A DNA stretch of 14,625 bases from Candidatus Eiseniibacteriota bacterium (GTDB taxonomy: Bacteria > Eisenbacteria > RBG-16-71-46 > SZUA-252). Below, one piece after another: positions 1-14,625 of the stretch (position 1 is the first letter of the stretch; every line of letters begins with the position of its first letter). The notes below the pieces were generated by a model, which was not told the origin of the DNA, searched no databases, and saw only the letters and a program-made list of their open reading frames with translations. The position numbers were made by a program, and so were the translations under genes. The DNA lies in NCBI GenBank assembly GCA_031370645.1, contig JANMQV010000024.1, positions 1 to 14,625 of the forward strand. The letters are read 5' to 3'.

Positions 1-852
1 GAGGGGAGCAAGGTCTTCGACGTCGTCGTGACCCTGGATCCGGAGGATCGGAGGGAGCCCGAAGAGATCGGAGCATTCCTCCTACGAAACGCAGAGGGGA
101 CGAGAGTCCCCCTGCGCGAGCTGGCGGATGTCGAGCTGACGACCGGCCGCTACTCAGTGCTGCACGAAGGAGCACGGCCGGTCCAGGCGGTCACCTGCAA
201 CGTCGGCGGGAGGGATCTTGCCTCCTTCGTATCGGAGGCGGAGCGGGTAGTGAACCGTCGGGTGGTCTTCCCGGCCGGGGTGTATGCCGTGTTCAAGGGC
301 GCAGCCGAAGCCAAGGCCCAGGCCCAACGCGATCTGCTCCTCAATTCCGCGATTGCGGGAGTGGGGATCGTGCTCCTCCTCTGGCTCGTATTCCAGAGCC
401 CCAGAAGCGTACTTCTCGTGCTCGTGAATCTCCCCTTCGCGCTCGTCGGTGGGATCCTGGCCGTGGCTCTCTCCGGCGGGTCGCTCTCCCTCGGGTCCCT
501 TGTTGGCTTCGTCACCCTGTTCGGCATCACCATGCGGAATTCCATGATGCTCATCTCGCACTACGAGCATCTCGTGGCGGTGGAGGGCATGGCCTGGGGT
601 CCCGAGGCCGCGCTCCGTGGCGCATCCGAGCGGCTCGTCCCCGTGCTCATGACCGCGCTGGTCACAGCCCTCGGGCTTCTCCCGCTCGCGCTCGGGGCCG
701 GCACTCCGGGCCGCGAAATCGAAGGACCGATGGCCATCGTGATCTTGGGCGGGCTGCTCACCTCAACAGCTCTGAACCTGCTCGTTCTACCTTCGTTGGC
801 GCTGCGCTACGCGCGCTTCGACCGCGCCGCGGGCGGGGCGCGGCTCGAATGA
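1..852 (+). CDS. CusA/CzcA-family RND efflux permease, C-terminal part (5' truncated by window)
   Basis: The frame is open from base 1 (EGSKVFDVVVTLDPE...). It carries typical RND C-terminal motifs: VPLRELADV, NLPFALVGG, SLGSLVGFVTLFGITMRNSMMLISHY, ERLVPVLMTALVTALGLLPLA and PMAIVILGGLLTST. Stop TGA is at 850-852. Confidence 0.93.
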   Translation, partial: EGSKVFDVVVTLDPEDRREPEEIGAFLLRNAEGTRVPLRELADVELTTGRYSVLHEGARPVQAVTCNVGGRDLASFVSEAERVVNRRVVFPAGVYAVFKGAAEAKAQAQRDLLLNSAIAGVGIVLLLWLVFQSPRSVLLVLVNLPFALVGGILAVALSGGSLSLGSLVGFVTLFGITMRNSMMLISHYEHLVAVEGMAWGPEAALRGASERLVPVLMTALVTALGLLPLALGAGTPGREIEGPMAIVILGGLLTSTALNLLVLPSLALRYARFDRAAGGARLE

Positions 853-1504: not shown

Positions 1505-2974
1505 ATGTCTAGATATCGGAGACTTGGAACTTCCGCAGTACTGGTTCTGGGACTGCTTCTCGCGAGCGGCGCGGCGCGAGCGCAGACGGTTGTGCGGCCA
1601 GGCTTCAATTTATTCACCGTCCCGCAGGACATCGAACTTGGGAAACAGTCCGCGGTTCAAGTTGATCGCCAGCTTCCAATGGTCTCCCGCCCAAGCGTGA
1701 ACCAGTACGTTGCGCGGCTGGGCGCGAAGCTGGCTCGCAATGCGCCCGGCGCCCCCTATCCATATCAGTTCAAGATCGTGAATCTTTCCGATATCAACGC
1801 CTTCGCGTTGCCGGGGGGATTTGTATACGTCCACCGGGGTCTCATCGAGCGGACGAGGACGGAAGGGGAACTCGCGGGAGTGATGGCCCATGAAATCGCT
1901 CACGTCGCCCTGAGGCACCAAACCAACCAAGTCTCGAAAGCTTACTTGGCGAAAGCCGGAGTCGGAATACTCGGCGGTCTTTTCGGCTCAAGGTCCAAGT
2001 CGACGACAGGCACGATCATGGGGGCCGTGGGCGGCGTCGGGTTGAACGCGCTATTCCTCCGAAATTCCCGCTCGGCCGAGGAACAAGCGGACATCGTGGG
2101 TGCCCAGATCATGGCGAAGTCGGGGTACGACCCGATGGAGATGGCGCGCTTCTTCGACGTTCTGCGACAAGAAGCGGGAGGGAATCCCGGCAAACTCGCT
2201 CAGTTCTTCAGCGACCACCCGGCGCCCGCGAACCGCGCGGCGCGCGTTCGCCGGGAAGCGAACCTTCTCGGCCCGGTGCGCGGCACGGCCCCAGCCGGCG
2301 ACATCGAGTTGGCGCGAACGGAGCTCCGGCGAATGCCCGCGGCCCCGACGATGGCGCAGGTCGCGAACGGCCAGACGCCGACGACGGCGAGCAGCACGAC
2401 CGAGGCATCGATCGAGCGTCCCTCCTCACAATTTCGTATCTTTCGCCAGCCGCAGGGATTTTTCGAGATCCGGTATCCCGACAACTGGAGCGCGTACGCC
2501 TCCTCGTCGGGACCCGGCGCCACGATCGCGCCGAGCGGCGGTCTCGTTCAGGACGCTAACGGCCGTCAGCGAGTCGTCACCGCGGTCATCGTGAGCCACT
2601 ACGTTCCATTCGAGGGGGAGATGGGTTCGCGCTATCGCGACCCGGAGGGCTCGCTATATGGAGGGAGCTCGCTGGAGGAGGCCACGAGCGACCTCGTCCG
2701 CCACATCATGAATGCCAATCAGTATCTGAGACCCGTTTCCGGTTCCGAGCGACGTGCCATGATTTCGGGCCAGAGTGCGCTCTCCGTCCAATTGTCCGGC
2801 TCGCCGGCGACCGGGGTCGAGGAGCGGGTTAAGGTGTTCACGCGCGAACTTCCGGATGGTCACGTGGTCTATGTTCTAGCGTTGGCGCCCGGCAGAGATT
2901 TCGGGGCCCTTCAATCCACGTTCGACGGCATGGTCGGGAGCCTCAAGGTGACCGAAACTGCTGGCCATGACTGA
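1505..2974 (+). CDS. Secreted M48-family zinc metallopeptidase with an extra C-terminal domain
   Basis: GAGGT RBS lies upstream. The signal peptide ends AARA|Q. Motifs are INAFALPGGFVYVHRGLI, ELAGVMAHEIAHV (HExxH), SRSAEEQAD and FFSDHP. A Thr/Ser linker precedes a ~180-aa domain starting near FEIRYPDNW. Confidence 0.92.
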   Translation: MSRYRRLGTSAVLVLGLLLASGAARAQTVVRPGFNLFTVPQDIELGKQSAVQVDRQLPMVSRPSVNQYVARLGAKLARNAPGAPYPYQFKIVNLSDINAFALPGGFVYVHRGLIERTRTEGELAGVMAHEIAHVALRHQTNQVSKAYLAKAGVGILGGLFGSRSKSTTGTIMGAVGGVGLNALFLRNSRSAEEQADIVGAQIMAKSGYDPMEMARFFDVLRQEAGGNPGKLAQFFSDHPAPANRAARVRREANLLGPVRGTAPAGDIELARTELRRMPAAPTMAQVANGQTPTTASSTTEASIERPSSQFRIFRQPQGFFEIRYPDNWSAYASSSGPGATIAPSGGLVQDANGRQRVVTAVIVSHYVPFEGEMGSRYRDPEGSLYGGSSLEEATSDLVRHIMNANQYLRPVSGSERRAMISGQSALSVQLSGSPATGVEERVKVFTRELPDGHVVYVLALAPGRDFGALQSTFDGMVGSLKVTETAGHD

Positions 2975-3009
2975 TGGCGCCGGAGTGGGACAAGAACAAG
3001 GTCTGAAAT

Positions 3010-3050
3010 GAGGGCCCGGCCAGCGTCACGTCGGGCTCCCTCGTACTTCT
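3010..3050 (+). terminator. Probable terminator hairpin of the M48 gene
   Basis: GAGG-GCCCGGC-(9 nt)-GTCGGGC-TC-CCTC is followed by GTACTTCT, a weak U-tract. Confidence 0.4.
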
Positions 3051-3061
3051 GAAATAGGGCT

Positions 3062-3074
3062 CCCCCTCCGCCAT
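3062..3074 (+). repeat. Direct repeat copy 2 of the tRNA-Ser 3' end (attR-like)
   Basis: CCCCCTCCGCCAT is identical to 1019-1031. CACTTCGGG also recurs downstream of both copies (1036-1044 and 3088-3096). Confidence 0.55.
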
Positions 3075-3120
3075 CTTCTCGGCCCCCCACTTCGGGGTGC
3101 TCCGATGGCCGGCTCCGTGT

Positions 3121-3152
3121 CGATTGCCCGCAATCGCCGCCTGCGGTACTCT
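3121..3152 (+). promoter_or_regulatory. Sigma70-like promoter TTGCCC-N17-TACTCT overlapped by the palindrome CGATTGC-CC-GCAATCG
   Basis: The -35 is at 3124-3129 and the -10 at 3147-3152, with a 17-nt spacer. A perfect 7-bp inverted repeat lies at 3121-3127/3130-3136. Confidence 0.55.
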
Positions 3153-3228
3153 TTCCCCTGATTGACTCGGCCCCCGAAGATTCGCTTCGGGGCGATGCCG
3201 TCCGGATTGCCCCGATGAGGGCCCCTCG

Positions 3229-4371
3229 ATGACCGAACCGAAACTCACTGCCCTCCGCGGCGAAATCGACCTCCTGAACGAGAAGCTCCTCGCCCTCGTT
3301 CAGAAGCGGGGCGAGATCGTCCTCGAAATTGCCGCGCTCAAGCGGTCGCTCGGAATCGACGATTTCGACGCCGGGCGCGAAGACGAAATGCTCCAGCGCC
3401 TCACGGCCGGCGTGACCGGACCCTTCAAGCCCGCAGAAATCCGGGAGATCTTCAAGACGATCTTCCGTGCTTCGCTCGACATCCAGGATCGCGATCGTCG
3501 TCAGGCTCTTCACGTCTTTCGCGAAGGGCTCGTCCCGGAATCCGGCATCCGAGTCGGCGACGTCGCGATCGGCCATGGGGCACCGGTCTTCTTCGTAGGC
3601 CCCTGCTCCGTTGAGTCGCCCGAGCAGATGGATGCGATCGCCGCGTACGTCGCCAAACTTCCAGGGAAGAAGATTCTCCGCGCCGGCGCGTTCAAGCCGC
3701 GGACGAATCCCTACTCCTTCCAGGGGCTCCGCGAAGAAGGGCTTCGCATCCTCCGATCGACCGCCGATCGGTACGGCCTGAGCGTCGTGACGGAGGTGCT
3801 CGACACCGCCACGCTCGACCTGGTCGCGGAGCACGCCGACATGCTGCAAATCGGCGCCCGCAATATGTTCAACACCGAGCTGCTGAAGGCGGTCGGACGC
3901 ATCAACAAGCCGGTCCTCCTCAAGCGCGCGTTCATGGCGACTCTCGAGGAACTTCTCCTTTGCGCGGAGTACATCCTTGCCGGGGGGAACGAACAGGTAG
4001 TCCTCTGCGAGCGGGGGATTCGAACGTTCGAGCGCTCGACGCGCTTCACGCTCGACATCTCCGCAGTGCCGTTGCTTCAGCAGCAGACTTCGCTTCCGGT
4101 GATCGTCGATTTGAGCCACGCGCTCGGGCGGAAGGACATCATGGCCCCCTGCGGGCGCGCCGCGCTCGCCGCCGGTGCCGACGGATTGATGATCGAAATC
4201 CACGATCGCCCGGACCAAGCGCTCTCCGACGGATTCCAGCAATTCAACTTGGCGGAGTTCGGCACCTTCTATGAATCGCTCCACGTCACCGCCGCCGACT
4301 CCGGCGACGCCCGAGAACCCGTGGAGCTCTCCGCACACACCGAACTCGGCGGCAGCCGAAGGAGCAGATAA
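3229..4371 (+). CDS. aroA: Bifunctional chorismate mutase (AroQ-type) / DAHP synthase class I-beta, Bacillus AroA(G)-like
   Basis: The N-terminal CM domain reads LRGEIDLLNEKLLALVQKRG...LK...DAGRE...GPF...IFKTIFRASLDIQ. DAHPS motifs are VGPCSVES, RAGAFKPRTNPYSFQGL, QIGARNM, CERGIRTFE, DLSH, IEIH and ALSDG. The symbol follows B. subtilis usage; this is not EPSP synthase. Confidence 0.95.
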   Translation: MTEPKLTALRGEIDLLNEKLLALVQKRGEIVLEIAALKRSLGIDDFDAGREDEMLQRLTAGVTGPFKPAEIREIFKTIFRASLDIQDRDRRQALHVFREGLVPESGIRVGDVAIGHGAPVFFVGPCSVESPEQMDAIAAYVAKLPGKKILRAGAFKPRTNPYSFQGLREEGLRILRSTADRYGLSVVTEVLDTATLDLVAEHADMLQIGARNMFNTELLKAVGRINKPVLLKRAFMATLEELLLCAEYILAGGNEQVVLCERGIRTFERSTRFTLDISAVPLLQQQTSLPVIVDLSHALGRKDIMAPCGRAALAAGADGLMIEIHDRPDQALSDGFQQFNLAEFGTFYESLHVTAADSGDAREPVELSAHTELGGSRRSR

Positions 4372-5105
4372 TGGCGGCGCGCGACGAGATCTTCGCGGAA
4401 TTGGCCGAACGCATCGCGGATTTCCACTTCGGCCATAAGGTCGCCGGCGTGTTCGACGACATGGTGGGACGATCGGTCCCGTTCTACCACGAGATCCAGC
4501 GGATGACTGGGGAACTCGTCGCGGATTTCGCGGCGGAGGGTACGGCAATCTACGACCTCGGCTGCTCGACGGGGACGACGTTCTTGCAGATCGCGCAGAG
4601 CGTCCCGGCCGAGCGAAACGTCCGCTACGTCGGAATCGATTCGTCGCCCGAGATGCTGGAACTCGCGAAAGAGAAGCTGTCGGGTCCCGGCTTCGGCCGT
4701 CCGTTCGAACTCCAATGCGCCGATCTGAATCAAGGCGTACGGATCGACAACGCCTCGGTCGTACTCATGGTGCTCACGCTTCAGTTCATCCGTCCGCTCT
4801 ATCGCCAGCGGCTGATCCGAAGCATCTGCGAGGGGTTGACCGACAACGGCGCACTCATTCTGGTGGAGAAGGTTCTGGGCGAGAACTCCACGTTCAACCG
4901 GCTCTTCATCGAGCACTACTACGAGATGAAGAAAGAGAACGGCTACAGCGAACTGGAAATCGCGCAGAAGCGCGAGGCGCTGGAAAACGTCCTGATCCCG
5001 TACCGCCTCGAGGAGAACAAGGAACTCCTGCACGAACAGGGCTTCCGGCACGTCGACGTCTTCTTCAAGTGGTACAACTTCTGCGCGATCATCGCGACCA
5101 AGTGA
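4371..5105 (+). CDS. cmoA: Carboxy-S-adenosyl-L-methionine synthase (CmoA family)
   Basis: The sequence is colinear with E. coli CmoA as recalled: RDEIF, DFHFGHKVAGVFDDMVGRSVPFY, IYDLGCSTG, TLQF and the signature NGYSELEIAQKREALENVL with the carboxylate-binding Arg. It has an AAGGAG RBS and a TAATG overlap with the upstream stop. Confidence 0.9.
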   Translation: MAARDEIFAELAERIADFHFGHKVAGVFDDMVGRSVPFYHEIQRMTGELVADFAAEGTAIYDLGCSTGTTFLQIAQSVPAERNVRYVGIDSSPEMLELAKEKLSGPGFGRPFELQCADLNQGVRIDNASVVLMVLTLQFIRPLYRQRLIRSICEGLTDNGALILVEKVLGENSTFNRLFIEHYYEMKKENGYSELEIAQKREALENVLIPYRLEENKELLHEQGFRHVDVFFKWYNFCAIIATK

Positions 5106-5905
5106 CGCCGAACGGAGCCGCGGAACCGACGCCAGTCGCCGAACCGGCCGCGCCCGCGAACCGGGCGCTCGTCCGGTTCGGCAACTTCCTCTTCAAGTGG
5201 CGAAACGAAGTCTTCCCGCTCACGTTTCTCGTCATCGCCGCCGCCTCCTACCCACGCGCTTCCTTCGGGACGGAACGTGGCGATCTCGTGGCGGATGTTG
5301 TCGGGATCGGTGTGGCGTTGGCGGGGCAGGCGCTCCGTGCCGCGGTCATCGGGCTCGCCTACATTCAGCGGGGAGGTAAGGCCAAGAAGATTCACGCCGA
5401 CGCTCTCGTGAAGGACGGACTCTTCGCGCATTCACGGAATCCGCTTTACCTGGGAAACATGCTCGTTTTTCTCGGGCTCTTCCTCGTGCTGAACTCGACC
5501 CTGGGCTACCTGGTCGGGGTTCCGTTCTTCTTCATCGCCTATTTGAGCCTTACGCTCGCCGAAGAGGAATTCCTGCGCAAACAATTCGGCGCGGAATACG
5601 AGGAGTACTTCCAGCGCGTGAACCGCTTCATCCCCGGGTTTCGAGGATTGGGAGCAACGATGCGGAGCATGTCGTTCAACTGGAAGCGGCTGATTCGCAA
5701 GGAATACGGCTCCACGTTCATCTGGATCACGGCCGCCATGGCGCTGGTGGTCTGGGAAGTTGCCGCCCGGCACGGATGGACGGCCGCCGGGCCGCGCGCA
5801 CGGATACTGGCGCCGATGTGGGCCATCGTGATCGCTGGATACGCGCTGGCGCGTTACCTCAAGAAGTCCGGCCGTCTTGTGGCGGCTTCGACACCCGCAC
5901 CGTAG
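5102..5905 (+). CDS. Integral-membrane ICMT/PEMT-family methyltransferase, similar to Leptospira lipid A phosphate methyltransferase LmtA
   Basis: A GTG start overlaps the cmoA stop (GTGA). Motifs are GNFLFKWR, LRAAVIG, ADALVKDGLFAHSRNPLYLGN, AEEEFLRKQFGAEYEEY..RVNRFIP and RLIRKEY. About six hydrophobic segments are present. The ORF-track extension from 4715 overlaps cmoA and is not credible. Confidence 0.85.
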   Translation: MTPNGAAEPTPVAEPAAPANRALVRFGNFLFKWRNEVFPLTFLVIAAASYPRASFGTERGDLVADVVGIGVALAGQALRAAVIGLAYIQRGGKAKKIHADALVKDGLFAHSRNPLYLGNMLVFLGLFLVLNSTLGYLVGVPFFFIAYLSLTLAEEEFLRKQFGAEYEEYFQRVNRFIPGFRGLGATMRSMSFNWKRLIRKEYGSTFIWITAAMALVVWEVAARHGWTAAGPRARILAPMWAIVIAGYALARYLKKSGRLVAASTPAP

Positions 5906-5958
5906 TCGTCTCCTTTGGTCCGCAACATGCCCTGCCTCCGTTCCCCGAATCGCGGCCC

Positions 5959-6768
5959 ATGAATCCCGAATTCCAGGACGACGATCTCGCGAGGTTCGAA
6001 GCGAACGGAGCGGAACCTCTGCCGGCTCCTAGAGTCCACGGGCACGTGGAGCAGGACGGCGCTCGAATCTGGTACGCCACCTACGGCTCCGGCGCCCCCG
6101 TGATTCTGCTTCACGGCGGCCTCGGCCACAGCGGCAATTGGGGCTACCAGGTGCCTGCCATCGTCGAGTCCGGCCACCGTGTCGTGCTCATCGATAGCCG
6201 CGGCCACGGCAGGAGCACGCGCGACTCTCGACCGTTCACCTATGAATTGATGGCGTCCGATGTGCTCGCCGTAATGGATTCGTTGGGGTTGCATCAGGCG
6301 GCGTTCGTGGGGTGGAGCGACGGGGCCTGCACCGCGCTCGTCCTCGCAAGGAGCGCGCCGGAGCGGGTAGCCGGGGTCTTCTTCTTCGGCTGCAACATGG
6401 ATCCGAGCGGCACGAAGGAGTTCGAATTCACCCCCATCGTTTGCCGCTGCTTCGGCCGGCACACCAAGGACTACGCCGAACTCTCCGCAACGCCGGACGA
6501 GTTCGAGGGCTTCTCCGACGCGGTTGGCGCCATGATGAAGACGCAACCCAATTACTCCGCCAGTGACCTAGCCGAAGTCCGAGTCCCCGTCATCATCGTG
6601 CAGAGCGAGCACGATGAATTCATCAAACCGGAACACGCTGAGTATCTAGCGCAAACCATCCCCGGCGCCACGCTCGTCCGCCTTCCGGGTGTAAGCCACT
6701 TCGCGCCGCTCCAGCGGCCGGAGCTCTTCAATGCAGCCCTGCGCTCCTACTTCGCGAAAATCCGTTAG
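5959..6768 (+). CDS. Alpha/beta-fold hydrolase
   Basis: Motifs are PVILLHGGLG, IDSRGHGRS and the nucleophile elbow GWSDG, with Asp in EHDEFI and His in GVSHFA. The start is taken at ATG 5959 (MNPEFQDDDL), after the upstream stop. Confidence 0.9.
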   Translation: MNPEFQDDDLARFEANGAEPLPAPRVHGHVEQDGARIWYATYGSGAPVILLHGGLGHSGNWGYQVPAIVESGHRVVLIDSRGHGRSTRDSRPFTYELMASDVLAVMDSLGLHQAAFVGWSDGACTALVLARSAPERVAGVFFFGCNMDPSGTKEFEFTPIVCRCFGRHTKDYAELSATPDEFEGFSDAVGAMMKTQPNYSASDLAEVRVPVIIVQSEHDEFIKPEHAEYLAQTIPGATLVRLPGVSHFAPLQRPELFNAALRSYFAKIR

Positions 6769-6770
6769 TA

Positions 6771-6800
6771 GGGACGGGCCGAAAACAAAAGGGCCGTCTC
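6771..6800. terminator. Imperfect hairpin between convergent stop codons
   Basis: GGGACGG...CCGTCTC flanks the A-rich GAAAACAAAA, which reads as a U-tract on the - strand. Confidence 0.3.
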
Positions 6801-6801
6801 G

Positions 6802-7890
6802 TTACCCACCCGCGCTGACTCTCTGAACGAACCAGAACCCACCGGCGGCGATGATTCCCCACGAGCCGGCGGCGACGACGCGCGCCGCGAGCCGGGGAGC
6901 CTGCCGTTCCAGAAGGCCGAGAGCGGGCGCGATGAGAAGCACGATGCAAACCTGGCCCGCCTCGACCCCCAGGTTGAACCCGAGCAGCGACCACGCGAGC
7001 ACCTCGCGCGGGAGTCCCACTTCGCCGAGCACCGAGGCGAATCCGAAGCCGTGCATGAGCCCAAATCCGAACGCGATCGGGGCGCGCCAGTCACGCCCTC
7101 CGTGCCGCGTCCGCAGATTGTCCCAACCGATCGTGACGATGCTGATCGCGATCAGCGGTTCAACGACGCTTGCCGGCGGCCGAAAGGCTCCGAGCGCGGC
7201 CAACGCGAGCGTGATACTGTGCGCCGCCGTGAATGCCGTGACCACCCCGAGAATGCGGCGCGCTCCCCCTCCCAGAAGGATGAGCCCCACGATGAACAGG
7301 ATGTGGTCGGGTCCGATGAAGATGTGATGCATCCCCGCGGCCACGTATCGAGTGAACGCGGCGGCCGCCCCCGCGGCGTCGGTTCGATAGACCTCGACGC
7401 GAGGGTGCCCGGCGGTGAGAACGTCTTGCCGCGTCAATCGACCGTCGACATAAACCTTCAAGAAGGTCTCGTGCTGCGTTGCCACGGTGAAGAGCCGGGA
7501 TTCGACCGCGATCGACCGGAGCGGGCGCCGGGGGAGGGCCTCGAGTGCGAACGCCACGGAGTTCCGCTCGGGAACCGTGGATGCCCCCAGGAATCGAAAC
7601 CTGAGACCCTCCGCGTCTCCCCGGATCGAAAATCGCGCCGCCACGTCGCGCGCCAGCCGCTCCGCGGTCGGACCGGACACCGCGTCCGCCAGCAGAAGAG
7701 ATGCCGGCGCCACGCCGAGAAGCGTCGCGGCATCATCGCGGTGGAGCGTCACGGTCACCGCCAAGCGGGCGCCGCGCCACTCGATGTCGGCGTAGCTGAA
7801 GGACTGATCGTGAGCCGAAGCGGTCGCCGGCAGCGAGAGCGCAGCACCGAGCGCGAGCACGCGGGCCAGGGTGACACGCCGGCGCGTCAT
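6802..7890 (-). CDS. HupE/UreJ-family membrane protein with an N-terminal periplasmic domain
   Basis: ATG 7890 overlaps the DUF4198 stop (ATGA). The signal peptide ends ASA|HDQ. Motifs are GMHHIFIGPDHILF, VTAFTAAHSITL, VEPLIAISI, FGFGLMHGFGFA and FNLGVEAGQ. Confidence 0.9.
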   Translation of the reverse strand: MTRRRVTLARVLALGAALSLPATASAHDQSFSYADIEWRGARLAVTVTLHRDDAATLLGVAPASLLLADAVSGPTAERLARDVAARFSIRGDAEGLRFRFLGASTVPERNSVAFALEALPRRPLRSIAVESRLFTVATQHETFLKVYVDGRLTRQDVLTAGHPRVEVYRTDAAGAAAAFTRYVAAGMHHIFIGPDHILFIVGLILLGGGARRILGVVTAFTAAHSITLALAALGAFRPPASVVEPLIAISIVTIGWDNLRTRHGGRDWRAPIAFGFGLMHGFGFASVLGEVGLPREVLAWSLLGFNLGVEAGQVCIVLLIAPALGLLERQAPRLAARVVAAGSWGIIAAGGFWFVQRVSAGG

Positions 7891-8774
7891 CGGCGTTCGA
7901 AGGTAAGCGATGCCCACGTGCTCTCCCAATCGGCTATGGCTCGATCGGATGAAGGGACCATCGTCACCGCGCTCACGAGCCATTCGCCGGCGGTTCGCAC
8001 GTCGAGGACAGCCTCCCCTCGCGCGTCGGTCGTTCCGCGCCAGCAGACAACGGACGAATCGCGCGCCGATGGATCGGTCGGCATCCCCGAGGGTTCGAGC
8101 CTCGTGCGCCATGCCTTCACAAGCACGCCAGCGACGGGTCGCCCCTGCGCGAGAACGCGAATGGGAAGCGTCGATCCCGATCCCGGCGCGACGAGCGGAA
8201 CGATCTCGAAGGGGAGGCCGAACGGCACGGTGGCGCGCCTCTCGATGTCCCCCGTGAGCCAGGCCTTGGCGCAGCGGCGATACCGCTCTCGCCCGGGAAC
8301 GGCGGCGCCAAGCCTGCGCGAAGCCGCGAGACGCACGGCCAACGCGTCGTTCAGCCCCTCGTCGCGCAAGTAGCGGTCGAAGCGCTCAGGATCGAGCGTA
8401 ATGGGGGTGAAGTCCGATTCGAACGCGAGGAGCGCACCTCCGTGGTCGGAGGGGGAAAAACGCACCCATTCCAATTCGCCCGCCGCCGCCGCCGCACTCA
8501 GATCTAGCACCTTGGTTGCGCGGACTGCGAAGCGGACGCCGTGGTTGGGCGACCATGGCTTTCGCTCACCCCGAAATCCCGTACCCGCCACCGCGGCGAT
8601 CGATACCGGTGCTCCCGGGATCCCGTCGTAGCGCGAAGGCGCGAGCCAATATTCGTGCGCGTGGGCGATCGGAGGGAGACAGGCAGCCGCGACCGTGACG
8701 CTCGCGACGAGAACGAGCGAGCGCGCCCCCACCAGGGCGGCATGAACGCTTTGGGTGATTCGGGGACGCGTCAT
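7887..8774 (-). CDS. DUF4198-family periplasmic protein (Ni/Co uptake associated)
   Basis: The signal peptide ends AHA|HEYWLAP. Motifs are FDRYLRDEGL, RERYRRCAKA, GLPFEIVP, TTDARG and DWESTWASLTF. Start 8774 is preferred over 8783 because 8783 abuts the -10 element. Confidence 0.85.
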   Translation of the reverse strand: MTRPRITQSVHAALVGARSLVLVASVTVAAACLPPIAHAHEYWLAPSRYDGIPGAPVSIAAVAGTGFRGERKPWSPNHGVRFAVRATKVLDLSAAAAAGELEWVRFSPSDHGGALLAFESDFTPITLDPERFDRYLRDEGLNDALAVRLAASRRLGAAVPGRERYRRCAKAWLTGDIERRATVPFGLPFEIVPLVAPGSGSTLPIRVLAQGRPVAGVLVKAWRTRLEPSGMPTDPSARDSSVVCWRGTTDARGEAVLDVRTAGEWLVSAVTMVPSSDRAIADWESTWASLTFERR

Positions 8775-8783
8775 ACTTCCCAT

Positions 8784-10484: not shown

Positions 10485-12212
10485 ATGCTACGACGCATCA
10501 TTCACTCCGCCGCCGCCGGCGGCCTGGCGCTCGCACTCCTGATTTCGCCCTCGGCCTCCCGTGCATCGAGCCACAGCGAAGCGCCCGGAACCAGCAAGGA
10601 CCGACTGGCCGACGACACCGACCTCTACGCCTGGATCGCGAACGACGCGCCGGACGCGGTCACGATCGTGGGCAACTGGGTTCCCCTCATCGAGCCGGCC
10701 AGCGGACCCAACTTCGCTTCGTTCGACGACGAGGCTCACTACTACATCAACATCGACAATGTCGGGGATTCGAAGAAGCACATCCGCTTCGAGTTCACGT
10801 TCCACACCACTCGGCGAAACGAAGGCACGTTCCTCTACAACACCGGACCCGTTTCGAGCCTGACCGATCCCAATTTGAACGTCGTCCAGACGTGGACGCT
10901 CACCCGAGTCAACGTCGACACCGGCAACGAGACGGTGCTCGGCTCCGGACAAGTCGCTCCCTATTACGTCGGCCCCACCTCGATGCCGAACTACTCGGCA
11001 TTGGCCCAATCCGCCATCCAAGCCCTCCCCGGAGGCTACCGGGTCTTCGTGGGACCGCGCGACGATCCCTTCTTCGTCGATCTCGCGGCTGTCTTCGATC
11101 TCTTGAGCATTCGCCGCCTGCCGGGCGACAAAGGGAAGGGCATCGACGGCGTCGGCGGTTACAACGTGATGACGGTGGCCATGCAGATTCCGAAGGATCA
11201 ACTGACGAAAGACGGCACGTCCCCCGATCCGAGCCGCGGCAATCACATCCTCGGCGTCTGGGACACCGCGGAGCGCTCCCAGACGCGCACGCTGAACGGA
11301 GATGGCACCGTTATGAACGCGGGGCCGGAAGTCCAGGTGTCTCGGCTTGGCATGCCGCTCGTGAACGAACTCGTGATTCCGCTCGGGAAAAAGGATCTCT
11401 TCAATGCGAGTGAACCGTCGAACGACGTCGCGCAGTTCGGGGCTTCGGTGGTCGATCCCGAACCGGCGAAGCTCCTTCACGCGCTCTTGGGCATCAACGT
11501 GCCGCCTGCGCCGCGGAGCGATATCGTCGCCGTGTTCGCAACCGGCGTGGCGGGGCTCAATCAGCCCGCAAACGTCGCACCGGGGGAGATGCTTCGGCTC
11601 AACATGACGATTCCGCCGTCGGTGAAGCCGAGCCGATTCGGTGTCCTCGCGGGCGACCTCGCCGGATTTCCGAATGGGCGGCGTCTCGGAGACGACGTCG
11701 TGGATATCGAACTCCGTGTGGTAGCCGGCGTGCTGGTCGACGGCTTCAATGTATCGCCGAACAACCAGTTGGGCGACGGAGTCGACGGGAACGACCTCCC
11801 GTTCCTCCCCTATTTCCCGTACGTGGCGCCGCCGCAGAACCCGGTGAATCACGTCCACCACGACGATCGCCCCATCAGACTTGCGAACCTCGGCGCGGCC
11901 CTCCCCGCGCGCGACCTCCGGAACACCGGCGCGAGCGCCGGTGCCGCGCTCCGAATGGCGTCGACCACGCCTGGCCCGAACGCGGTGCTCCAATATTCGC
12001 TCGAGAAGGCCTCGCGGGTGACGCTTCGCGTCTACGACATCCAGGGAAGAATGGTCCGATCGCTCGTCGATCAAGACGCGGCGCCAGGAACCTTCCGCGC
12101 GGAGTGGGATGGCGGGGCGGACAATGGGGCGAACGCCGCACGCGGTGTCTACTTTGTTCGAATGACCGCGGCGGGGCAAACGGTCGATACGCGAAAGGTG
12201 ATTCTCCAGTAA
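10485..12212 (+). CDS. Secreted DUF4331-family protein with a C-terminal FlgD-Ig/T9SS-sorting-like domain
   Basis: AAAGGA RBS. The signal peptide ends SRA|SSHSEAP. Motifs are DDTDLYAW, FVGPRDDPFFVDL, QVSRLGMPLVNE, GFPNGRRLGDDVVDIELR and FPYVAPP. The tail reads LRVYDIQGRMVRSL...WDG...GVYFVRM...RKVILQ. Confidence 0.88.
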   Translation: MLRRIIHSAAAGGLALALLISPSASRASSHSEAPGTSKDRLADDTDLYAWIANDAPDAVTIVGNWVPLIEPASGPNFASFDDEAHYYINIDNVGDSKKHIRFEFTFHTTRRNEGTFLYNTGPVSSLTDPNLNVVQTWTLTRVNVDTGNETVLGSGQVAPYYVGPTSMPNYSALAQSAIQALPGGYRVFVGPRDDPFFVDLAAVFDLLSIRRLPGDKGKGIDGVGGYNVMTVAMQIPKDQLTKDGTSPDPSRGNHILGVWDTAERSQTRTLNGDGTVMNAGPEVQVSRLGMPLVNELVIPLGKKDLFNASEPSNDVAQFGASVVDPEPAKLLHALLGINVPPAPRSDIVAVFATGVAGLNQPANVAPGEMLRLNMTIPPSVKPSRFGVLAGDLAGFPNGRRLGDDVVDIELRVVAGVLVDGFNVSPNNQLGDGVDGNDLPFLPYFPYVAPPQNPVNHVHHDDRPIRLANLGAALPARDLRNTGASAGAALRMASTTPGPNAVLQYSLEKASRVTLRVYDIQGRMVRSLVDQDAAPGTFRAEWDGGADNGANAARGVYFVRMTAAGQTVDTRKVILQ

Positions 12213-13213: not shown

Positions 13214-14625
13214 ATGAGCATGGAACCCGGCACTCGCCTCGGCGCCTACGAGATCACCGGCCAGATCGGGGCCGGCGGCATGGGCGAGGTCTTCAAGGCG
13301 CGCGACACCCGCCTCGACCGAACCGTCGCCATCAAAGTCCTGCAGGGACACCTCACCGTCAGCCCCGAGACGCGCCAGCGCTTCGAGCGCGAGGCCCGCG
13401 TCATCTCGAGCCTCAACCATCCCAACATCTGCACCCTTTATGACGTCGGCCACCAGGACGGGATGGACTATCTCGTCATGGAATTCATCGAGGGGGAGTC
13501 GCTCGCCGATCGCCTGACGCACGGCTCGATCCCTCTCGCCGAACTCCTAAAGGTCGGCACGGAGATCTCGGACGCCCTCGATCGCGCGCACCGCCAGGGA
13601 CTCGTCCATCGAGACCTGAAGCCCGGGAACATCATGCTCACGAAGTCGGGCGCCAAGTTGCTCGACTTCGGCCTCGCGCGTGCCACGGGCCTCGCCCCGA
13701 CGGCTGGCGACATGTCTTCACCCACGATGAGCCGCCCGCTGACGGCCGAAGGGACGATCGTCGGCACGTTCCAGTACATGGCGCCCGAGCAGCTCGAGGG
13801 AAAAGAGGCCGATCCACGGAGCGACCTTTTCTCCCTCGGTGCCGTGCTCTACGAGATGGCGACGGGGAAGCGGGCGTTTGAAGGGAAGAGCCAGGCGAGC
13901 CTCATCGCGTCGATCCTGAAGGAGACGCCGCAGCCGATTTCCTCCATCTCCAATGTGTCACCGCCCGCGCTCGACAAGATCGTCATGCGCTGCCTCGAGA
14001 AAGACCCCGAGGATCGCTACCAGACGGCGCGCGACGTGCTGCTCGAACTCAAGTGGGTTTCGGAAGCCGGCTCCCGCGCCGGCATTCCGGCGCCGGTGGC
14101 GGCGAAGCGGAAGTCGCGCGAACTCCTGGCGTGGCGCTTGGTCGCCCTCGCTGCCGCTGCCGCGTTGATCTTCGGCGTGAAGGGGATCCTCACTCGCACG
14201 GAGCCGCCGCGTCCGATCGAGTTCATCACCGACGTGCCCGGCGGGATCAATTTCATCGACACACCGAAGATTTCCCCGGATGGACGGACGATCGCGTTCA
14301 GCGCCTCCGACACGACGGGTATCCAAAAGGTTTGGGTGCGCTCGCTCGGCTCCATCGAATCGAAGGCCATCGCGAACACGGAAAACGCCGGCCGCCCCTT
14401 CTGGTCTCCCGATAGCCGCTTCGTCGCCTTCATGTCGGACGGGAAATTGAAGAAGATCGCGCTCGACGGGGGGCCGCCTCAGACCATTTGCGAATCGAAG
14501 AGCAGAGGGGACGGTTCCTGGAGCAAACGCGGAGTCATCGTGTACGACGGCTCGCCGAGCGACTCGATCCGATGGGTGAGCGCCGGCGGAGGTACGGAAG
14601 CGGCGCCCGCCACCAAGATCGATCG
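13214..14625 (+). CDS. Hanks-type Ser/Thr protein kinase with a TM helix and PD40/TolB-like beta-propeller repeats (3' truncated by window)
   Basis: Translated by hand because it is absent from the ORF track (no stop in the window). It reads MSMEPGTRLGAYEITGQIGAGGMGEVFKARDTRLDRTVAIKVL, then HRDLKPGN, LLDFGLA, GTFQYMAPEQ and RSDLFSLG. The TM is LLAWRLVALAAAAALIFGV, followed by ISPDGRTIAF and PFWSPDSRFVAF. Confidence 0.95.
   Translation, partial: MSMEPGTRLGAYEITGQIGAGGMGEVFKARDTRLDRTVAIKVLQGHLTVSPETRQRFEREARVISSLNHPNICTLYDVGHQDGMDYLVMEFIEGESLADRLTHGSIPLAELLKVGTEISDALDRAHRQGLVHRDLKPGNIMLTKSGAKLLDFGLARATGLAPTAGDMSSPTMSRPLTAEGTIVGTFQYMAPEQLEGKEADPRSDLFSLGAVLYEMATGKRAFEGKSQASLIASILKETPQPISSISNVSPPALDKIVMRCLEKDPEDRYQTARDVLLELKWVSEAGSRAGIPAPVAAKRKSRELLAWRLVALAAAAALIFGVKGILTRTEPPRPIEFITDVPGGINFIDTPKISPDGRTIAFSASDTTGIQKVWVRSLGSIESKAIANTENAGRPFWSPDSRFVAFMSDGKLKKIALDGGPPQTICESKSRGDGSWSKRGVIVYDGSPSDSIRWVSAGGGTEAAPATKID

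Follow-up and report, generated by a model that had tools for sequence, protein, structure and literature searches.

CmoA converts S-adenosyl-L-methionine (SAM) and prephenate, the product of chorismate mutase, into carboxy-S-adenosyl-L-methionine (Cx-SAM), a rare cofactor, and phenylpyruvate. The Cx-SAM consumers described in two papers (PMC10491745, PMC12783734) are CmoB, TglF, MccB's C-terminal domain (MccB-CTD), and the phage enzyme CmoX. In the CmoA/CmoB system, the tRNA cmo5U34 pathway of Escherichia coli and other Gram-negative bacteria, the synthase gene is described as standing beside the transferase gene (PMC10491745). The TglE/TglF (3-thiaglutamate), MccS/MccB-CTD (microcin C-like), and CmoA/CmoX (5-carboxymethylcytosine in DNA) pairs combine a CmoA homologue with a neighboring non-CmoB transferase, and they are reported to have been discovered by neighborhood reasoning. 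According to the same papers, TglF is a CmoB relative acting on a peptide thiol, MccB-CTD has a methyltransferase fold and acts on a microcin C-type peptidyl-nucleotide intermediate, and CmoX is a C5 DNA methyltransferase homologue with DNA cytosine as its acceptor (PMC10491745, PMC12783734). LmtA of Leptospira interrogans is described as methylating the 1-phosphate of lipid A (PMC4402001). Here, we describe a locus of a Candidatus Eiseniibacteriota assembly (GCA_031370645.1, JANMQV010000024.1), where cmoA lies between a predicted chorismate mutase/DAHP synthase gene and a gene for a putative membrane protein of the ICMT/PEMT fold. The three genes, called the cassette below, occupy positions 3229-5905 of the 14,625 nucleotide (nt) stretch that was analyzed (the window).

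The CmoA step would be the same as in the CmoA/CmoB system, and the synthase gene again adjoins the gene of a presumed transferase. However, the partner is predicted to be an integral-membrane ICMT-fold protein, whereas CmoB is a soluble Rossmann-fold enzyme, and the presumed acceptor is a membrane lipid instead of tRNA. The cassette also differs from the TglF, MccB-CTD, and CmoX systems, since its transferase would be a membrane protein of another fold and its module includes a dedicated chorismate mutase. The original prediction for this locus named CmoB as the known consumer of Cx-SAM, which was too narrow. Since TglF, MccB-CTD, and CmoX are already known, a consumer other than CmoB would be nothing new in itself; the new element would be a consumer that is a membrane protein of the ICMT fold. 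The accompanying statement that no system of this kind had been described held up. A full-text literature search, excluding subscription papers and supplementary files, yielded no published account of an ICMT- or LmtA-type enzyme tied to CmoA or Cx-SAM. Based on gene linkage and homology, we lean toward a carboxy-SAM cascade, in which an integral-membrane carboxymethyltransferase would consume the cofactor, with lipid A or another lipid of the envelope as its most likely acceptor. The novelty would then be a two-enzyme Cx-SAM cascade with a dedicated supply of prephenate, in which both the fold of the transferase and the class of the substrate would be new; the transfer step and the acceptor are what we propose.

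Three overlapping genes and their products

The cassette genes overlap at both junctions (Table 1) and form one translationally coupled module. The coupling had been claimed in the original prediction, and both overlap motifs, TAATG and GTGA, are present in the sequence. The Pfam and NCBIfam matches also agreed with its gene identities (chorismate mutase/DAHP synthase, CmoA, and an ICMT-family membrane enzyme). The closest relative of the membrane protein (P0004, 89% identity, 267 aa) has the same start position.

By its family matches, the second gene is cmoA, encoding a predicted carboxy-S-adenosyl-L-methionine synthase. Its product scored 245.7 bits on the TIGR00740 equivalog model (cut-off 193.3), covering model positions 1-239 of 239, and 245.1 bits in a whole-genome scan. 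The comparison with E. coli CmoA (4gek) gave an E value of 1.1e-50. Arg199 of the E. coli enzyme is described as forming a salt bridge with the cofactor carboxylate and as not being conserved in ordinary SAM enzymes (PMC3663124). In the alignment with 4gek, this residue corresponds to R201 of the cassette protein, which was invariant in 28/28 cassette CmoAs. Tyr39, Asp62, Gly64, Ser66, Asp89, Asp117, and Glu164 are likewise retained. Asn90 is changed to Ser, and Asn132, reported to touch the methionine part of the cofactor (PMC3663124), is replaced by Val134.

The predicted complex of CmoA with the membrane enzyme had a score of 0.00 against a mark of 0.32, which gave no answer and was counted neither for nor against binding. 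An apparent fusion of the two proteins, P0124 (528 aa; genome G174, L173 1441-3027), was rejected, as tblastn split the open reading frame into two frames. P0124 is a cmoA with its last ~60 codons frameshifted into the frame of the next gene. The shift points to a pseudogene or to an indel in the assembly of this single-contig genome. No true fusion of CmoA and the membrane enzyme was found, and the search for longer proteins is weak evidence of absence.

The first gene is, as judged from its sequence, a bifunctional AroQ-type chorismate mutase / type I-beta DAHP synthase. It reached 461 bits on NF009239 (cut-off 279), matching model positions 2-353 of 360. The Pfam domains CM_2 and DAHP_synth_1 were assigned to residues 9-86 (64.1 bits) and 111-351 (252.1 bits), respectively. 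The family and the domain order are those of the Bacillus-type AroA(G) enzyme. Here, by comparison, the gene is an extra paralogue, specific to the cassette, beside a housekeeping DAHP synthase and a second chorismate mutase. The cassette genomes hold a second DAHP synthase with 46-49% identity, which matches the DAHP synthase part only, as do nearly all of their relatives. The genome of the window contains a second CM_2 gene on another contig (C38). The cassette paralogue accompanied cmoA and the membrane gene and did not occur without them.

According to sequence profiles and a structural model, the third gene product is an integral-membrane ICMT/PEMT-fold protein from a distinct clade that is linked to cmoA and has LmtA as a distant relative. 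It scored 47.5 bits on PF04191 PEMT (cut-off 25) and 20.6 bits on PF04140 ICMT, the latter being below the cut-off of 24. The best NCBIfam match was LmtA_Leptospira TIGR04571, with 99.7 bits over model positions 9-196 of 252. This is far from the cut-off of 325, and thus the protein is not an LmtA member. Six other cmoA-linked members of the clade gave 73-99 bits on the same model. A weak match to MddA was also obtained (18.4 bits). A profile search of 1.84 billion representative proteins returned 305 family matches at E <= 1e-30, indicating a distinct family of moderate size. The protein atlas offered generic PEMT/ICMT clusters only, plus one LmtA-named cluster at rank 11.

The AlphaFold2 model, calculated from 59 relatives, had a mean predicted local distance difference test (pLDDT) value of 86.6 and a predicted template modeling (pTM) score of 0.83. 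Its core (residues 24-179) was superimposed on 5vg9 with a root mean square deviation (rmsd) of 3.2 Å over 142 aligned residues and on 4a2n with 3.1 Å over 146. The corresponding VIA Z values, 11.2 and 10.9, lie lower than the value of ~13 that can arise for helical bundles. Foldseek returned 4a2n as the top match (E 0.016, probability 1.00), and the same two ICMT structures were matched by the sequence profile with E ~1e-8. The likeness to ICMT (Ste14; 4a2n, 5vg9/5v7p) thus comprises the fold of the catalytic core, the cofactor motifs, and the alignment of the GQxLR Arg. The differences are the missing context of a prenylated CAAX substrate, the replacement of the His of the RHP motif by Asn, and a helical hairpin modeled at residues 194-255, beyond the ICMT core.

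In the family alignment (59 sequences), the mean column identity was 59%. The invariant residues included R79, R90-G-G, H110, R112-N113-P114, Y116, E154-E155, R175, R196, and K200-E201. The cofactor motifs R112-N113-P114-L-Y116 and E154-E155 aligned with those of 5vg9 and 4a2n. The conserved Arg of the GQxLR motif aligned with the Arg of the corresponding 5vg9 motif, which we take to bind the substrate carboxylate in ICMT. R90, K93, H110, N113, N131, and S132 were conserved specifically in the clade.

Homologues closer to LmtA occur in genomes of the same phylum that lack cmoA. Three of these were tested on TIGR04571, giving 195-216 bits, with two matching near the full model. The clade differs from them by an RGGK loop, in place of a Ser/Gly-Arg-Asn-Thr loop, before the cofactor motif. 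It has AHSRNP where they have xxxRHP, it carries an LNS motif, and the YYER preceding the EE pair is missing. The cassette protein shares with LmtA the character of an ICMT/PEMT-superfamily membrane protein, the GNxLFxxR and R(K/R)EY motifs, and, probably, lipid A as the target class. It differs by its low TIGR04571 score, by the RGGK, AHSRNP (not xxxRHP), and LNS features, and by its proposed donor, which would be Cx-SAM instead of SAM. The LmtA-like signatures of the original prediction are present as GNFLFKWR (27-34) and RKEY (199-202). However, GNxLFxxR and R(K/R)EY are common to the closer LmtA homologues of the cmoA-less genomes, and are thus markers of the wider LmtA-like group rather than of carboxy-SAM use. 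Across the phylum, loci with closer LmtA homologues are L010-L015 in genomes G011, G014, G019, G035, G028, and G009.

Two family members have an unusual architecture. P0262 (442 aa) has an additional hydrophobic segment and ends in an OmpA-family domain, and P0135 (507 aa) contains two tandem PEMT/ICMT-type domains.

Linkage to cmoA and to chorismate mutase

We surveyed 206 genomes of the phylum for the membrane family (family profile, E <= 1e-40) and for cmoA (E <= 1e-30). The membrane family was found in 10 genomes and cmoA in 11, and all 10 were among the 11. Both genes were thus present in 10 genomes, cmoA only in 1, the family only in 0, and neither in 195. In all 10 family-bearing genomes, cmoA was directly upstream of the membrane gene, with the chorismate mutase/DAHP synthase gene upstream of cmoA. 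The linkage of cmoA and the membrane gene is far beyond chance. The genes flanking the triad were not conserved, and the distribution was patchy within genera. The cassette occurred in 3/7 genomes of genus g1 and 2/6 of genus g3 in a set of 41 relatives, and in 3/10 of g3 in the phylum set. The patchiness and the non-conserved flanks fit a cassette gained or lost as a unit.

The sole cmoA of the phylum without a membrane partner is found in genome G028 (contig C1, ~4.60 Mb; L049 6752-7492). It adjoins two dCTP-deaminase-like genes, a B12-binding radical-SAM gene, and a PLD-like gene. This cmoA may represent a different use of the cofactor, in a nucleotide or DNA modification locus like that of the phage CmoA/CmoX.

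Outside the phylum, we inspected metagenome loci, taken as the best 80 of 311 family-profile matches. In 68/80 of these, cmoA was immediately upstream of the membrane gene on the same strand. The short upstream sequence of 7/80 loci was uninformative, so that the adjacency was seen in 68 of the 73 informative ones. A plasmid collection contained 18 records with a homologue of 35-44% identity (Ensifer 9, Rhizobium 6, Sinorhizobium 2, Gemmatirosa 1). Six of these plasmid or chromid loci were fetched, and cmoA was directly upstream in 6/6. For 2 of the 6 replicons, the depositors' annotation reads CmoA followed by 'isoprenylcysteine carboxylmethyltransferase family protein'. The cultured carriers include Ensifer adhaerens, Rhizobium spp., and Gemmatirosa kalamazoonensis. 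On plasmid pT136b of Rhizobium sp. T136 (L177 4213-7793), the pair lies between two oppositely oriented IS6-family transposase genes, in an arrangement like a composite transposon.

The adjacency is thus kept in at least three record-named phyla, Candidatus Eisenbacteria, Gemmatimonadota, and Pseudomonadota. By source names only, further relatives come from Thermoanaerobaculia, Planctomycetota, Phycisphaerales, Verrucomicrobiae, Luteolibacter, Haloferula, Pseudoduganella, and an Enterobacteriaceae bacterium. At its smallest, the unit consists of cmoA and the membrane gene. Conservation of the ICMT-like gene beside cmoA had been set beforehand as a test, and the pair was found together in 10/10 genomes, 68/73 loci, and 6/6 replicons.

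The link to chorismate mutase takes other forms outside the phylum. In 23 metagenome loci, the gene upstream of cmoA was the chorismate mutase-DAHP synthase fusion. In 7 loci, the DAHP synthase match began at or near the contig end, where the presence of the chorismate mutase domain could not be assessed. A stand-alone chorismate mutase gene (~100-118 aa, without DAHP synthase) preceded cmoA in 9 loci, and Pfam CM_2 was confirmed in the 6/6 that were checked. Neither enzyme was encoded in 7 loci having at least 350 nt 5' of cmoA, while 22 other cmoA-linked loci were too short to show the status. Chorismate mutase was absent from the 6 fetched replicon loci (rhizobial and Gemmatirosa).

Chorismate mutase was also found fused to the membrane enzyme itself. 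Among the 12 longest of 150 listed profile matches, 5 consisted of a membrane enzyme with all clade motifs and a C-terminal CM_2 domain. The same combination (PF04191 + PF01817) was seen in 15/120 listed relatives of one fusion protein. The fusion proteins (P0194, P0212, P0216, P0218, P0220, P0275-P0287; 344-417 aa) come from several sources, one of which is a Phycisphaerales metagenome-assembled genome. The plasmid collection contained no such fusion. Chorismate mutase is thus an optional supply part, attached in three ways in different lineages. The stand-alone genes and the fusions to the membrane enzyme indicate that its link to the pair is independent of DAHP synthase. A membrane methyltransferase using SAM alone would have no evident use for chorismate mutase, whereas the user of a prephenate-derived cofactor has one; therefore, the fusions favor the dependence on Cx-SAM. 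The position of chorismate mutase at the C-terminus of the fusions places this terminus, and by implication the cofactor site, on the cytoplasmic side.

The tRNA route of Cx-SAM was also searched for. In the 95.4%-complete genome of the window, the best match to cmoB (TIGR00452) had 28.5 bits against a cut-off of 275, and cmoB was over the cut-off in 0/41 relatives and 0/206 genomes of the phylum. Each of these searches did place the E. coli control above the cut-off. PF17773 (UPF0176_N) and PF01136 (Peptidase_U32), which we take to be the marker families of TrhO and TrhP, respectively, the enzymes that hydroxylate uridine-34 to ho5U, had no match in the same genome, which is incomplete, so this is not proof of absence. 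No TglF homologue was over the cut-off in the genome or the phylum. The original prediction had seen no cmoB in the window and proposed looking for cmoB and trhP/trhO in the genome; the window has no cmoB, and the wider searches gave the same outcome. It had also named co-distribution of cmoB with the cassette cmoA as a finding that would refute it, and none was seen across the phylum. The cmoA of Rhizobium sp. T136 carries a tRNA-modification Gene Ontology term from PGAP. Canonical CmoA-CmoB systems are described as occurring mainly outside Alphaproteobacteria (PMC6063277). The tRNA-modification annotation is probably wrong for the cmoA of this clade.

A proposed carboxymethyl transfer at the envelope and its alternatives

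The cascade that we favor would have three steps. As its family assignment suggests, the extra chorismate mutase/DAHP synthase would drive carbon into the shikimate pathway and turn chorismate into prephenate. CmoA would use prephenate to carboxylate the methyl group of SAM, yielding Cx-SAM and phenylpyruvate; this is established chemistry for the family, the membership of which was tested. The membrane enzyme, with its cofactor site facing the cytoplasm, would bind Cx-SAM in place of SAM. The enzyme would then pass the carboxymethyl group (+58 Da) on to an acceptor embedded in the membrane, where an anionic or nucleophilic group would receive it. By analogy with LmtA, this acceptor would most likely be lipid A or lipopolysaccharide (LPS), for instance a phosphate of lipid A, with other envelope lipids being possible. 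CmoB is reported to select Cx-SAM through Lys91, Tyr200, and Arg315 (PMC4482062), and ordinary methyltransferases are reported to be able to use cxSAM (PMC7496830). The K91A variant of CmoB is reported to lose the selectivity for Cx-SAM while still transferring methyl groups. The operon had been read in the original prediction as precursor supply, cofactor synthase, and membrane transferase. The strict co-occurrence, the adjacency, the lack of cmoB, TrhO, and TrhP matches, and the link to chorismate mutase support this reading. In its most specific form, the proposal would be that of a first ICMT-fold carboxymethyltransferase, fed with Cx-SAM by CmoA and with prephenate by chorismate mutase, targeting a lipid A phosphate and encoded by a module spread horizontally across phyla, including cultured rhizobia. 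We put forward this full version tentatively.

The genetic context offers some clues to the acceptor. LpxC and LpxK are encoded in the genome of the window. Among the 41 relatives, 6 genomes carry the cassette and 7 carry an LmtA-closer homologue (E <= 1e-17), with no overlap in this small and related sample. The cassette enzyme and the LmtA-closer homologue may be alternatives at the same envelope site. We surveyed the neighbors of 29 cmoA-linked loci. An ArnT-like GT-C gene adjoins the pair in 5/29, with ArnT being the best or only NCBIfam match in 5/5 at 60-150 bits, well below the cut-off. The gene of a PagL lipid A deacylase adjoins it in 2/29 and that of an OmpR-type response regulator in 4/29. 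Single loci have an ArnC-like GT2 gene, a Wzy_C-domain (O-antigen-ligase-family) gene, or the gene of an MsbA-like exporter. Lipid A or LPS may therefore be the acceptor; this is our best guess, and its support is moderate and comes from distant members.

Several observations weigh against this picture. The neighbors in the window (an M48 peptidase, an AcrB fragment, and an alpha/beta hydrolase) and in the close relatives are unrelated to LPS, so that the link to lipid A comes from distant loci, which are the minority. Most known modifications make lipid A less negatively charged; a carboxymethyl phosphate ester would not, so that its benefit is unclear. We know of no natural carboxymethylated lipid. 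The word 'carboxymethyl' does not occur in a review of Kdo2-lipid A (PMC4402001). As for the linkage, kin genomes are not independent, and the best-80 metagenome sample favors close relatives and contains many near-duplicates from related samples. Five of the 73 informative loci (L119, L126, L147, L153, and L159) have no cmoA upstream despite at least 439 nt of sequence; here, SAM may serve the enzyme as cofactor, or those genomes may have cmoA at another place. Where the clade has the basic residues of the RGGK loop and of RKEY, the LmtA-closer homologues of the cmoA-less genomes have basic residues at comparable positions. Since the two groups are alike in this respect, no residue can be singled out as the one that binds the carboxylate. 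The added Arg or Lys that the original prediction expected around QRGGKAKKIH (89-98) was thus not pinned down, and this region yielded candidates only.

Against this background, we weighed four other explanations. In the first, the membrane enzyme would use SAM to O-methylate, and so cap, a carboxyl group, in the manner of ICMT on prenylcysteine and of CmoM on cmo5U. The carboxymethyl group would be installed by another enzyme that depends on Cx-SAM, so that the pair would serve one substrate without the membrane protein itself using Cx-SAM. The best-known members of the superfamily methylate carboxylates or phosphates with SAM (ICMT, 4a2n and 5vg9; LmtA, as described in PMC4402001), and the canonical cofactor motifs (R-x-P-x-Y and the EE pair) are kept in the cassette protein. 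This explanation calls for a further Cx-SAM enzyme, whereas the minimal mobile unit holds cmoA and the membrane gene only, as in the IS6-flanked T136 pair and the 7 metagenome loci lacking chorismate mutase and DAHP synthase. Moreover, no third conserved gene was seen in the surveyed loci, and neither CmoB nor TglF had a homologue over the cut-off in the genome or the phylum. We regard this explanation as unlikely.

A similarly low probability was assigned to an ordinary SAM-dependent methyltransferase of the LmtA type. In this case, CmoA would serve another purpose, such as tRNA modification through an unrecognized CmoB analogue or the control of the SAM pool, and the adjacency would reflect co-regulation or hitch-hiking. 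The five family members without an upstream cmoA fit such an enzyme, as do the LmtA-closer homologues, which work in cmoA-less genomes of the same phylum. However, the strict co-occurrence in the phylum, where the family was never found without cmoA, speaks against this explanation. The same applies to the overlap of the start and stop codons and to the adjacency kept in at least three phyla. The fusion of chorismate mutase to the membrane enzyme would have no rationale for an enzyme using SAM alone, and the lack of TrhO and TrhP matches in the genome also speaks against a tRNA role.

It is improbable that the cassette CmoA is a diverged paralogue producing no Cx-SAM. Such a protein would be a plain methyltransferase or make another SAM derivative, and two successive (methyl) transfers would take place on a membrane substrate. 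The Val134 found in place of Asn132 and the moderate identity to E. coli CmoA would be in line with this. They are set against the TIGR00740 score above the equivalog cut-off, the invariant Arg199 equivalent (28/28), and the seven other kept positions from Tyr39 to Glu164 listed above. The repeated, independent recruitment of chorismate mutase likewise fits a need for prephenate.

Least probable is an acceptor that is a chorismate- or prephenate-derived lipophilic molecule or a sulfur compound (as for MddA), giving a secreted or membrane-soluble metabolite: the direct fusion to chorismate mutase could mean that the aromatic pathway supplies the acceptor, and the weak MddA match points the same way, but cmoA is the constant partner while chorismate mutase is dispensable (absent from 7 loci with 350 nt or more upstream of cmoA and from the 6 fetched replicon loci), the nearest characterized relative is a lipid A enzyme, and ArnT-, ArnC-, and PagL-like genes are neighbors in several loci.

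Surroundings of the cassette and implications

The coordinates of the cassette and of the other features of the window are collected in Table 1. The alpha/beta hydrolase gene was considered as a fourth member of the module and rejected, since no homologue was present in the loci of 5 relatives or in the 80 metagenome loci. RND/efflux genes also flank the cassette in the metagenome loci L109 and L118. The HupE/UreJ_2 gene and the DUF4198 gene lie side by side, a pairing that occurs in metal (nickel/cobalt) uptake systems. A promoter and terminator scan of positions 2900-6900 gave 0 promoter-like and 2 terminator-like signals (minus strand), not above shuffled sequences, and the scan is uninformative for this organism. 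The stretch was present in 8 DNA runs of two studies (freshwater sediment, and sediment or unspecified metagenomes), with no RNA run listed.

Table 1. Cassette genes, junction motifs, and other features of the window.
Feature	Position	Strand	Remarks
AcrB-family RND transporter, C-terminal part	1-852	+	cut by window start
M48-family peptidase	1505-2974	+	upstream of cassette
Chorismate mutase/DAHP synthase gene	3229-4371	+	380 aa; NF009239, Pfam CM_2 and DAHP_synth_1
AAGGAG, Shine-Dalgarno-like	4359-4364	+	within the end of gene 1; spacing to the cmoA ATG 6 nt; consensus resemblance only
TAATG	4369-4373	+	stop of gene 1 and start of cmoA share 1 base
cmoA	4371-5105	+	244 aa; TIGR00740 above cut-off
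GTGA	5102-5105	+	membrane-gene start overlaps cmoA stop
Membrane ICMT/PEMT-fold gene (predicted)	5102-5905	+	267 aa, GTG start; PF04191
Alpha/beta hydrolase	5959-6768	+	Abhydrolase_1, 105 bits; begins 54 nt after membrane gene
HupE/UreJ_2 membrane protein adjoining DUF4198 protein	6802-8783	-	
DUF4331 protein	10485-12212	+	C-terminal FlgD Ig-like domain
Ser/Thr protein kinase	13214-14625	+	PD40 (WD40-like) repeats; runs past window end

If the proposed cascade is true, Cx-SAM would have a consumer of a different fold that is embedded in the membrane. The use of the cofactor would thereby reach lipids or the cell envelope, and the ICMT/PEMT superfamily would gain a new type of reaction. With lipid A as the acceptor, bacteria of soils and sediments, among them rhizobia associated with plants, would modify their LPS in a new way. 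A lipid A phosphate target would make this the first lipid substrate for carboxy-SAM. The carboxymethylation of lipid A could then affect the charge of the outer membrane, cation binding, and recognition by the host.

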